Positions 18,516 through 20,294 of a stretch of DNA of 64,000 nt are shown one piece after another. The DNA is from a virus (Duplodnaviria > Heunggongvirae > Uroviricota > Caudoviricetes). Both the position numbers and the translations under genes were made by a program. How positions within the stretch are numbered: the first letter of the stretch is position 1; the number at the start of each line of letters is the position of its first letter. Under the pieces are notes generated by a model that was not told where the DNA came from, ran no database searches, and saw only the letters and a program-made list of their open reading frames with translations. The DNA is taken from IMG/VR virus record IMGVR_UViG_2681813455_000010, positions 1,928-65,927 of that record. One strand, given 5' to 3'.

Positions 18516-20294
18516 ATGGGTTTTTATAATGACGCACTGAGTAAAATATATAGTGAAGATGATGATTTCCTAATTATAGGATTAACAGGGAGGACGGGGT
18601 CAGGCTGTTCAACAGTTTCTAATATACTGTCATCAGAATCAAGTGAGATAAAGCATTCTCTATTTAACGGTGATTACCCTAAGTCGAATGAAGAAAGAAA
18701 AGAGCGGGTTCTATTTAAATATTTTTCCGTGTCATGGGTTCCATTTATAAAAATACAAGCAAGTTCCATACTGACATTGTGTTTATCAAAGGACTTTGAT
18801 GGTAAGCTGAATAAATTTATTCGGGAAGTGACGGAGTTAGGTAATGACCAAAGAATCCTAGAGTCAACAGTTAATGATCTTGAATCTATACTAAAAGAAA
18901 TTAAAGCTAAAGATGAAAGCTCTGATCATGATATAGATGATAAGATAAAATTCATAAATGAATATCTAATAAAAGCGAATACACAAATTAAATCCATATT
19001 TAAGAACAAGGCTGACTATATAAAATTATATCAAGCTATAGGTAATAATTATAGATCTAGTGGGATGTACCATGACAGTTCATTTAGTGATGATTTCCAT
19101 GGCTTTTTTCTTCCTAAAAAAATAAATGATATAATTCAAAGATTAAGAACCTTAGCAAAAGAAAAGAACACAAAAACTGGAGAAAAGAAACCTATTTATA
19201 TAGTTATTGATGCTATAAGAAATCCGTTCGAAGCAACATACTTCCAAGATAGATACTCATCATTTTATTTAATGGCTGTTTCTACAGAAGAGCATTACAG
19301 GCATCAAAGGCTTAGAGAACAAGGTTTAACTGATGCTGAGATAAAAGATATTGATGCAAAAGAATACCGTAAATCATCTTTGGATGAGAAGTCATCATAT
19401 ATATATCAGAATATACAGTCTTGTTTAGAAATATCAGACATCTATGTTGAGAATCCGGAAGAGGAAAATGTTGTTTGTCGGTACTCAGGATTGGCTAATC
19501 AATTAATTAAATTCACTTCATTAATGAAGCGTCCTGGTATAATAACTCCATCAAATGTTGAACGTTGCATGCAGATAGCATATACAGCTAAGTTGAACTC
19601 TGGTTGTATATCCAGGCAGGTAGGCGCTGCAGTATCTGATAGTTCATTTTCAATTAAGTCTATTGGTTGGAATGATGTACCAAGTGGTCAAGTTCCTTGC
19701 TCTTTAAGGGATAGGTTTGATTTGTCTGAGGGGATTGATGATATTGCTTACTCTGAATTCGAAAAGAACGAAAATAGTTTCATTCGAAAAATAGATAGCA
19801 CTAAGATTATTTTTTTAGATGTTAAAAATAAAGGAATGAGAGCTCCATTTTGTTTTAAAACAGAATGGAATAATATCCTTGATGATAAATACAAAGAAGA
19901 TCTACGGGTCGAACATAAGTTAAATGATGATGAGTTTGCTATTATTGACAAAATAAAGTCTAACGCTAATCAAGTTTTTACAAGATCACTTCATGCTGAA
20001 GAGAATGCTTTCTTACAAATATCTAAGTATGGTGGCGTTGGTATACAGAATGGTTTTTTGTTCACAACAGCAAGCCCTTGTGAATTATGTTCTAAAAAAG
20101 CGTATCAATTAGGGATCAAACAAATATATTACATAGATCCATACCCTGGTATAGCAATGAGGAATATTTTAAACGCAGGGAGCAATAAACCATTGCTTAA
20201 GCTTTTCAATGGTGCAATAGGTAAGGCATTCCATAATTTTTACACGCCAAGAATGGCTTATAAAGATGAGCTTTCAGCAAGATCTAGGGGATGA
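18516..20294 (+). CDS. P-loop kinase / cytidine-deaminase fusion protein (AvcD / dCTP-deaminase-like)
   Basis: 592 aa; N-terminal Walker A GLTGRTGSGCST; C-terminal HAEENA and PCELC zinc-dependent deaminase motifs. Confidence 0.7.
   Translation: MGFYNDALSKIYSEDDDFLIIGLTGRTGSGCSTVSNILSSESSEIKHSLFNGDYPKSNEERKERVLFKYFSVSWVPFIKIQASSILTLCLSKDFDGKLNKFIREVTELGNDQRILESTVNDLESILKEIKAKDESSDHDIDDKIKFINEYLIKANTQIKSIFKNKADYIKLYQAIGNNYRSSGMYHDSSFSDDFHGFFLPKKINDIIQRLRTLAKEKNTKTGEKKPIYIVIDAIRNPFEATYFQDRYSSFYLMAVSTEEHYRHQRLREQGLTDAEIKDIDAKEYRKSSLDEKSSYIYQNIQSCLEISDIYVENPEEENVVCRYSGLANQLIKFTSLMKRPGIITPSNVERCMQIAYTAKLNSGCISRQVGAAVSDSSFSIKSIGWNDVPSGQVPCSLRDRFDLSEGIDDIAYSEFEKNENSFIRKIDSTKIIFLDVKNKGMRAPFCFKTEWNNILDDKYKEDLRVEHKLNDDEFAIIDKIKSNANQVFTRSLHAEENAFLQISKYGGVGIQNGFLFTTASPCELCSKKAYQLGIKQIYYIDPYPGIAMRNILNAGSNKPLLKLFNGAIGKAFHNFYTPRMAYKDELSARSRG

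Follow-up and report, generated by a model that had tools for sequence, protein, structure and literature searches.

Two described systems are closest to the gene considered here. The first is the dCTP deaminase of Escherichia coli AW1.7 (WP_045268677.1, 576 amino acids; locus L009), which depletes dCTP and defends against phage, and in which the substitutions G29A/C30A (kinase motif) and C370A/C401A (deaminase) abolish both defence and dCTP depletion (Tal et al., bioRxiv 10.1101/2021.04.26.441389). T7 gp5.7 escape mutants bear on its trigger. The second is AvcD of the AvcID type III toxin-antitoxin system, described for Vibrio cholerae (VC0175) and for enterotoxigenic E. coli (ETEC) H10407 (Hsueh et al., bioRxiv 10.1101/2021.03.31.437871 and PLoS Pathog 2023, PMC10511110); the ETEC protein (p58, WP_000951932.1, locus L010) has 532 amino acids. 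The subject of this analysis is a gene at positions 18516 to 20294 (+ strand) of a 64,000-nucleotide stretch of DNA from IMG/VR record IMGVR_UViG_2681813455_000010 (positions 1,928 to 65,927 of that record), which we refer to in its entirety as the window. The gene belongs to a prophage of the blood isolate E. coli SF-468, the DNA being chromosomal, and its product, WP_060710333.1, carries the RefSeq name “hypothetical protein”. We consider it quite probable that this prophage gene encodes a functional anti-phage dCTP deaminase that acts as a single-gene system, of the AW1.7 type described by Tal et al.

AvcI, the inhibitor of AvcD, is a small RNA that lies directly 5′ of avcD on the same strand and is transcribed together with it, forming the 5′ portion of the joint transcript; its minimal length is 152–174 nt, the transcript measures ~280 nt, and its sequence is not conserved between homologues (Hsueh et al.). 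K511E and Q514R, two of the five substitutions by which V. cholerae AvcD loses its sensitivity to AvcI, are located in the C-terminal tail of the protein (Hsueh et al.). As for the distribution of the family, dCTP deaminase genes have been reported on mobile elements such as P4-like satellites (PMC13612085).

Assignment to the anti-phage dCTP deaminase family

The gene is an intact open reading frame (ORF) of 592 codons plus stop, which starts at the ATG at 18516, with a GGAG 5 nt upstream, and whose stop codon ends at 20294. The start methionine is shared by its homologues in an alignment of the N-termini. The features of the gene and its product are as follows, with the evidence for each in brackets.

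18516..20294, + strand: complete coding sequence (CDS) of an anti-phage dCTP deaminase homologue (ORF, PADLOC, NF041025, alignment with AW1.7)
18516..19535, + strand: predicted N-terminal P-loop nucleotide-kinase-like domain, residues ~1–340 (Foldseek, structural model, weak Pfam matches)
18579..18614, + strand: Walker-A-like P-loop GLTGRTGSGCST, residues 22–33 (alignments)
19194..19226, + strand: Walker-B-like strand IYIVIDAIRNP (invariant alignment columns; strand at residues 227–232 of the model)
19548..20291, + strand: predicted C-terminal zinc-dependent dCMP-deaminase-fold domain, residues ~345–592 (Pfam, sequence, Foldseek)
19605..19700, + strand: span from Cys364 (19605–19607) to Cys395 (19698–19700) (alignment with C370/C401 of AW1.7)
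19878..19961, + strand: clade-specific 28-residue insertion LDDKYKEDLRVEHKLNDDEFAIIDKIKS, residues 455–482 (alignment, split hits, model confidence)
19992..20000, + strand: catalytic motif H493-A-E495, zinc ligand and proton-shuttle glutamate (invariant in alignments)
20076..20090, + strand: PCELC, residues 521–525 (P521, C522, C525), with two cysteine zinc ligands (invariant in alignments)

The protein matches the PADLOC dCTPase profile (PDLC02373) with an E-value of 5.3e-127 over residues 8–585, and the NCBIfam model NF041025, “anti-phage dCTP deaminase”, with an E-value of 9.7e-111 and 370.7 bits over profile positions 1–437 of 437. A profile match of more than 350 amino acids was taken as full length for the dCTP deaminase family, and that of the SF-468 protein is longer. 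Within the protein, the Pfam family dCMP_cyt_deam_1 (PF00383) matches residues 347–539 (E 2.5e-12), while the Pfam families AAA_18 and CoaE match the N-terminal domain weakly; the PHROGs family phrog_8118, which has no assigned function, matches as well. Full-length homologues number in the thousands, and an exhaustive phmmer search against representatives of clusters at 50% identity returned 441 of them at E <= 1e-30, rising to 1401 at E <= 1e-10. The pairing of the kinase and deaminase domains lies far outside what chance would give.

A first-pass annotation of this DNA, made from the letters alone, had placed the gene in the AvcD/dCTP deaminase family on the basis of that pairing. The profiles, the alignments to two characterised members, the residues known to be essential, and the predicted fold all agree with this placement, and they support the view that the protein is a full-length, divergent member of the anti-phage kinase-deaminase (dCTP deaminase/AvcD) family.

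Domain organisation and conserved residues

The P-loop, HAEENA and PCELC motifs of the 592-residue protein were all located where the annotation had put them, the HAE(ENA) beginning at residue 493. In alignments of 35–50 homologues, the P-loop glycines G22, G28, and G30 are invariant, and so are D232, H493-A-E495, P521-C522...C525, and the C-terminal KDE, as well as P237 and E239 alongside D232 in the alignment of the Walker-B-like strand. G25 of the P-loop is invariant in the alignment of 35 sequences and at least 90% conserved in that of 50. The P-loop reads GSGCST, such that Cys31 occupies the canonical position of the Walker A lysine. Cys364 and Cys395, which correspond to the two deaminase cysteines of AW1.7, also align near residues 19/20 and 49 of the T4 dCMP deaminase.

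An AlphaFold2 model calculated from 50 homologues was confident, with a mean predicted local distance difference test score (pLDDT) of 82 and a predicted template modelling score (pTM) of 0.79. When its N-terminal domain was compared with the Protein Data Bank (PDB) by Foldseek, the matches were an adenylate-kinase-related protein and dephospho-CoA kinases. The C-terminal domain matched 4p9e, 1vq2, 2w4l, 2hvw, and 7fh4 with target-normalised TM-scores of 0.6–0.82, these being dCMP deaminases of S-TIM5, T4, human (DCTD), S. mutans, and PBCV-1 (bi-DCD), and its sequence also matches the T4 and S-TIM5 enzymes, whose structures are solved. Neither a sequence search of solved structures nor Foldseek against the PDB turned up a full-length relative, and hence no solved AvcD or dCTP-deaminase defence protein. 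The description “kinase-deaminase fusion” holds for the sequence, for individual residues, and for the predicted fold.

Two parts of the protein stand out from this general plan. The kinase-like domain contains a helical insertion of ~130 residues (~85–222), most of which is gapped in the alignment row of ETEC AvcD. Within the deaminase domain, the insertion at residues 455–482 is confined to the SF-468 protein and its four closest relatives (97, 90, 71, and 59% identity), which also share a second insertion of ~10 residues (~216–225). Most of the representative phmmer hits are split at residues ~455 and ~480. The model is poor in this region, with pLDDT values per 10 residues of 62, 74, 62, and 38 across residues 451–490.

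Comparison with AW1.7, AvcD and stand-alone deaminases

The annotation had proposed alignment to characterised AvcD and dCTP deaminase proteins as a check. The AW1.7 protein is 38% identical to the SF-468 protein (E 6e-123) and colinear with it from end to end. All four of the residues whose substitution abolishes AW1.7 activity are kept, G29/C30 corresponding to G30/C31 and C370/C401 to C364/C395. The two proteins also have in common the P-loop GLTGRTGSGC[ST]T with cysteine in place of lysine, the helical insertion in the kinase domain, the HAE and PCELC motifs, and the KDE C-terminus, and both are encoded by single genes on a mobile element beside an integrase, with flanking DNA that is not conserved. 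AW1.7, however, lacks the 28-residue and ~10-residue insertions and scores higher against NF041025 (449 bits), and its gene lies in a tRNA-Phe island, whereas that of SF-468 lies in the b-region of a lambdoid prophage.

ETEC AvcD resembles the SF-468 protein in the order of its domains (P-loop kinase-like, then dCMP deaminase), in the HAE and PCxxC motifs, in matching the same PADLOC and NCBIfam models, and in its presumed chemistry (dCTP/dCMP to dU nucleotides) and presumed trigger (shut-off of host transcription). It is only 24% identical, and only over residues ~216–590, the C-terminal two-thirds of the SF-468 protein; for the characterised AvcD proteins together the range is 24–26% over ~360–385 residues. 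AvcD proteins (ETEC and plasmid-encoded) have the Walker-A lysine (G-x-G-x-K-T) where the SF-468 protein has cysteine, and ETEC AvcD runs ~45 residues beyond the KDE, whereas the SF-468 protein ends seven residues after it. The label “AvcD / dCTP deaminase” proposed by the annotation is thus supported, but can be refined: the protein is far closer to the single-gene AW1.7 type (38%, full length) than to AvcD proper (24%, partial), and no sign of AvcI was seen at the locus.

T4 Cd (1vq2), S-TIM5 (4p9c), human DCTD (2w4l), and PBCV-1 bi-DCD (7fh4) resemble the C-terminal domain in both fold and active site. These stand-alone dCMP deaminases are single-domain biosynthetic enzymes of 130–190 residues without a P-loop domain, and they match the C-terminal third of the SF-468 protein only; the solved dCMP deaminases align with no more than its last ~100–200 residues.

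From pairwise identities among the proteins examined, we drew three branches of the family. The AvcD type (ETEC p58 and plasmid copies of E. coli, Klebsiella, and Photobacterium) shows 41–51% mutual identity, and the AW1.7 type (AW1.7, TW10598, LR-29-1, and LF82) 52–70%. The third, to which the SF-468 protein belongs, comprises Pseudomonas, Neisseria, Shewanella, and many metagenomic proteins that are 49–71% identical to it; the identity of this branch is ~40% with the AW1.7 type and ~25% with the AvcD type. The P-loop with cysteine, the helical insertion, and the short C-terminus are common to the SF-468 branch and the AW1.7 type, whereas proteins of the AvcD type retain the Walker-A lysine, are missing the greater part of the helical insertion, and end in the C-terminal tail of ~45 residues.

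The upstream region and the question of AvcI

The AvcI region appears in annotations as a small ORF. In all four AvcD-type loci examined, which are on different replicons, a same-strand ORF of 56–65 codons ends 12–74 nt before the deaminase gene. We used this small-ORF architecture as the control in place of upstream nucleotide conservation among the four loci, the nucleotide comparison of which showed 65–72% identity in the CDS core only and no readable conservation upstream. The SF-468 locus has no conserved counterpart of the small ORF. Its gene follows a gap of 926 nt (17590–18515), in which two features were recognised:

18387..18515, + strand: conserved AT-rich upstream block, 129 nt (comparison with the plasmid copy L002)
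18021..18410, no strand assigned: mobX-like remnant, ~390 nt (~71% identity with the mobilisation gene mobX as carried by small E. coli plasmids)

Upstream of the gene, only the 129 nt of the block are common to SF-468 and the copy on a Rep3 plasmid contig whose product is 90% identical. Over this block the two are 80.6% identical, making it more conserved than the synonymous sites of the gene (pS 0.42). The block is probably a promoter, short leader, and ribosome-binding site, as its conservation suggests; its predicted folding does not exceed that of shuffled sequence (z −0.51). A simple promoter/terminator scan gave fewer promoter-like sites than were present in shuffled sequence, and none of them in the block. 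The mobX remnant is probably the scar of a small mobilisable plasmid that brought in the deaminase cassette. The rest of the gap is a patchwork. It includes a stretch of ~70 nt (17682–17751; positions 93–162 of the gap) that matches unannotated DNA of many E. coli chromosomes at ~80–90%, and which may be a small repeat or the end of an element.

More distant copies share even less. That encoding a 71%-identical protein has nothing outside the CDS in common with SF-468 and lies 60 nt from the preceding gene; the LF82 copy has 57 nt upstream, and copies of the AW1.7 branch likewise have only the CDS in common. The upstream gap has a median of ~300 nt (75 related loci), and homology between copies in different contexts reaches 0–207 nt upstream and no further than 14 nt downstream (88 loci). 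No neighbouring gene family occurs in more than five of 82 loci, and hence no conserved partner gene was found. Taken together, these results show that what moves is one gene, accompanied by a short promoter and leader.

Rfam, which has no AvcI model, gave nothing relevant in scans of the SF-468 region and of known AvcI-bearing loci. Two kinds of ORF were considered as AvcI counterparts and rejected. A scan upstream of 79 related loci gave 23 small same-strand ORFs, whose translations are noise-like and without mutual similarity, apart from one real antitoxin-like neighbour (at locus L031). At the SF-468 locus itself, a 45-codon ORF (18283–18420) falls within the mobX-like remnant that the plasmid copy lacks. 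We conclude that the locus does not have AvcID architecture, although it might, with low probability, encode in cis a short RNA of an unrecognised kind.

The prophage and the mobility of the gene

The setting of the gene in the b-region of a prophage, which the annotation had also proposed, is borne out by an exact attachment-site repeat, by an integrase that adjoins tRNA-Thr, and by tail-fibre genes from 21394 onward. The flanking features are:

14450..14496, no strand assigned: attR of the lambdoid prophage, 47 bp (identical to 62556–62602, the 3′ part of tRNA-Thr)
20308..20898, no strand assigned: downstream flank, a Qin-like segment (590 bp; present at 94% identity in the Qin-like prophages of 42 further E. 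coli genomes)

The element is a lambdoid prophage of ~48 kb integrated at thrW, with the gene order int, recombination, immunity, replication, Q, lysis, head, tail, J, and tail fibres. Its b-region spans 14497..21095, and the deaminase gene is located there between the tail fibres and attR, on the strand opposite the late operon. The left-hand gene (16450..17589, − strand) is transcribed divergently, and the late operon on the right is convergent. The b-region is a mosaic of a DUF4365 gene, an integrase fragment with a 379-amino acid gene, the mobX remnant with the deaminase gene, and the Qin-like piece. In other prophages whose att and tail-fibre ends are the same, the cargo is a different one throughout, and the b-region is therefore a variable cargo slot.

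The gene is present in six of 5426 complete E. coli genomes. The GC content of its CDS is 32.7%, as against 51.6% for the rest of the prophage. With a dN/dS of 0.087 relative to the plasmid copy, it is under purifying selection. That copy, whose product (P0002) is 90% identical, has a restriction-modification system as its neighbour on the Rep3 plasmid contig, and full-length homologues occur on some plasmids. All of this points to accessory, horizontally moved cargo, consisting of a bare CDS with ~130 nt of upstream DNA.

Homologues were also seen in other contexts. On metagenome/Logan contigs (L003–L005), the 71%-identical homologue is a bare CDS with 60 nt upstream and ~80 nt downstream, placed between a DUF3748 gene and glyS, near spoT-rpoZ-gmk, in a genome of ~40% GC; this insertion is unusually compact and context-free. 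AW1.7-type genes of E. coli TW10598, LR-29-1, and LF82 (L098, L099, and L100) occupy three further mobile contexts, namely beside a P2-like int/CI pair, on an island interrupting dusC, and, with the 57 nt of upstream DNA already mentioned, inside an integrative and conjugative element (LF82).

Proposed mode of action

As the gene is on the strand opposite the late operon, it is presumably expressed from its own promoter, which would drive the enzyme in the lysogen. By analogy with AW1.7 and AvcID, the enzyme would be held inactive in uninfected cells, and the block on it would be released when a lytic phage shuts down host transcription. The active enzyme would then deaminate dCTP, and probably also dCMP, to deoxyuridine nucleotides, as its relatives suggest. 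With the dC pool emptied, phage DNA replication would be expected to stall, in phages with slower replication cycles. The P-loop domain would be essential to this process. Because the Walker-A lysine is replaced by cysteine, it is probably not a conventional kinase, and binding or sensing of a nucleotide is the more likely role.

Several points weigh against this interpretation. The NF041025 score of 370.7 bits is below the curated equivalog cut-off of the model (400 bits), and the nearest experimentally characterised enzyme is only 38% identical. The deaminase domain is interrupted by a 28-residue insertion that is modelled with low confidence. A simple promoter scan flagged no sigma-70 consensus promoter in block 18387–18515, and a tblastn search found no full-length homologue in deposited phage genomes, so that the prophage setting is unusual for the branch. 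Moreover, the proposed trigger and off-switch are extrapolated from AW1.7 (through the gp5.7 escape mutants) and from AvcID, and no AvcI-like RNA was found at the SF-468 locus.

The score itself can be accounted for. Three relatives within the SF-468 branch score 386, 366, and 391.5 bits, and a Neisseria protein of the branch that NCBI has named scores 401, while elsewhere in the family ETEC AvcD reaches 470 bits, with AW1.7 also well above the cut-off. The sub-threshold score reflects a cut-off set on other branches; it indicates neither a missing feature nor a different function. Since the branch lies at or under this cut-off, the SF-468 protein and many of its Pseudomonas homologues are named “hypothetical protein”.

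Alternative explanations

A variant of the preferred reading concerns control only. The SF-468 branch, and perhaps the entire AW1.7-type half of the family, might work by a protein-only, self-regulated version of the AvcD mechanism without an RNA antitoxin, in which infection is sensed directly by the helical insertion or by the 28-residue insertion. The insertion would sense changes in the nucleotide pool, or a phage factor, and turn the deaminase on. We regard this as possible, but somewhat doubtful.

An AvcID-type type III toxin is, in our estimation, unlikely. A small RNA from the leader or from the 17590–18515 gap would bind and inhibit the enzyme, and loss of this labile RNA on transcription shut-off would free it. 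The idea draws on the fact that ETEC AvcD, at 24% identity, hits the same PADLOC and NCBIfam models, and that AvcI is unconserved between homologues, so that missing homology proves little. The median upstream gap is ~300 nt, and the 129-nt block is conserved at 80.6% in the face of a pS of 0.42. However, this block, with the promoter included, is shorter than the minimal AvcI of 152–174 nt, let alone the ~280-nt transcript, and it folds like shuffled sequence. The 71%-identical and LF82 copies have only 60 nt and 57 nt upstream. All four AvcD loci have the small upstream ORF, and the sole candidate at the SF-468 locus lies in the mobX-like remnant. Finally, the protein has neither the Walker-A lysine nor the ~45-residue tail that holds two of the five AvcI-insensitivity substitutions.

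Still less probable, to the extent that we give it little credence, is a role in the nucleotide metabolism of the prophage itself, in the manner of T4 Cd and dNMP kinase, whereby more dUMP/dTTP would be supplied in lytic growth. The deaminase domain is indeed closest, among solved structures, to the phage T4 and S-TIM5 dCMP deaminases, there is a weak PHROGs dCMP deaminase match (phrog_174, E 2e-21), and the gene is in a prophage. Yet its place is in the variable b-region and not in the replication or late modules, its strand is opposite to that of the late operon, and the relatives closest to it were seen on plasmids and in chromosomal islands rather than in phages. Its full-length architecture is that of a defensive family, whose activity starves replication, and its GC content shows a recent foreign origin.

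The RefSeq name and the score under the NCBIfam cut-off might raise the suspicion of a dCMP deaminase/kinase that is housekeeping or decayed and plays no part in relation to phage, but this is most improbable, in that the ORF is intact with a dN/dS of 0.087 and all catalytic residues kept, the gene is accessory mobile cargo found in only six of the 5426 E. coli genomes, the housekeeping model ComEB (TIGR02571) scores 36.6 bits against a cut-off of 219.45, and the low NF041025 score is common to the entire branch, including the NCBI-named protein at 401 bits; the better fit to a housekeeping enzyme that would have spoken against the first-pass annotation was thus not seen.

Neighbouring genes

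Just inside attR, at 14835–15875 (− strand), is a gene for a 346-amino acid DUF4365 nuclease-like protein. Its N-terminal ~135 residues match the PADLOC profile Aga_REase-PNTD, a restriction endonuclease (REase) associated with prokaryotic Argonaute (pAgo) (E 8.5e-22), and the candidate defence family PDC-M02A, and its C-terminal ~180 residues gave no match; it is likely to be a stand-alone nuclease-type defence candidate. The next block, 16124–17589 (− strand), consists of a C-terminal fragment of a tyrosine recombinase (16124–16414) followed by the 379-amino acid protein (16450..17589, − strand), which matches phrog_12525, a PHROG without assigned function (E 1e-138), and has no Pfam or PADLOC match. 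The same pair is found at ~91% identity beside an intact integrase in other E. coli (Shiga toxin-producing E. coli genomes), and the block was probably captured from another integrative element.

On the other side of the deaminase gene, the 20308–20898 segment sits between hokD and replication genes in Qin-like prophages, where it abuts varied cargo, for example an “ATP-dependent nuclease”. A hairpin with an 11-bp stem at 20491–20517 was flagged as terminator-like on the − strand. In the immunity region of the prophage, at ~56164–57017 (+ strand), RefSeq places a Panacea-domain protein and then a hypothetical protein between the repressor and kil/gam; this pair may be a PanA-type toxin-antitoxin or a defence moron.

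A second, low-GC element of 12.6 kb (1893–14449) is in tandem with the prophage at the thrW att site, between the att copies at 1872–1892, where 21 bp of the 47-bp repeat recur, and 14450–14496. It encodes an integrase (1979–3313, +), a Dit-like tail protein (3394–4107, −), a tape-measure-like protein (4141–5970, −), a major capsid protein (6275–7303, −), a replication initiator (9416–10108, −), and a DNA invertase (12718–13257, +). At this size it cannot be a complete phage; it may represent a satellite, or else a phage that has decayed.

Implications for the family

As far as the sequence can show, the mechanism of the SF-468 enzyme is ordinary, and the practical value of the finding is mostly one of annotation; the known mechanism is unchanged. 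A populous sub-branch of the dCTP deaminases lies just under the NCBI naming threshold and appears in RefSeq as “hypothetical protein”, including in clinical E. coli. As these names hide the sub-branch, a census of defence systems by RefSeq product names would miss it. The locus also offers a clean natural case of a lambdoid prophage with a nucleotide-depletion defence gene as a self-contained b-region cassette. Lastly, the comparison with AvcID poses a testable question, namely what holds the enzymes without AvcI off. If that control should turn out to reside in the protein alone, the family would have evolved two distinct controls for the same effector.

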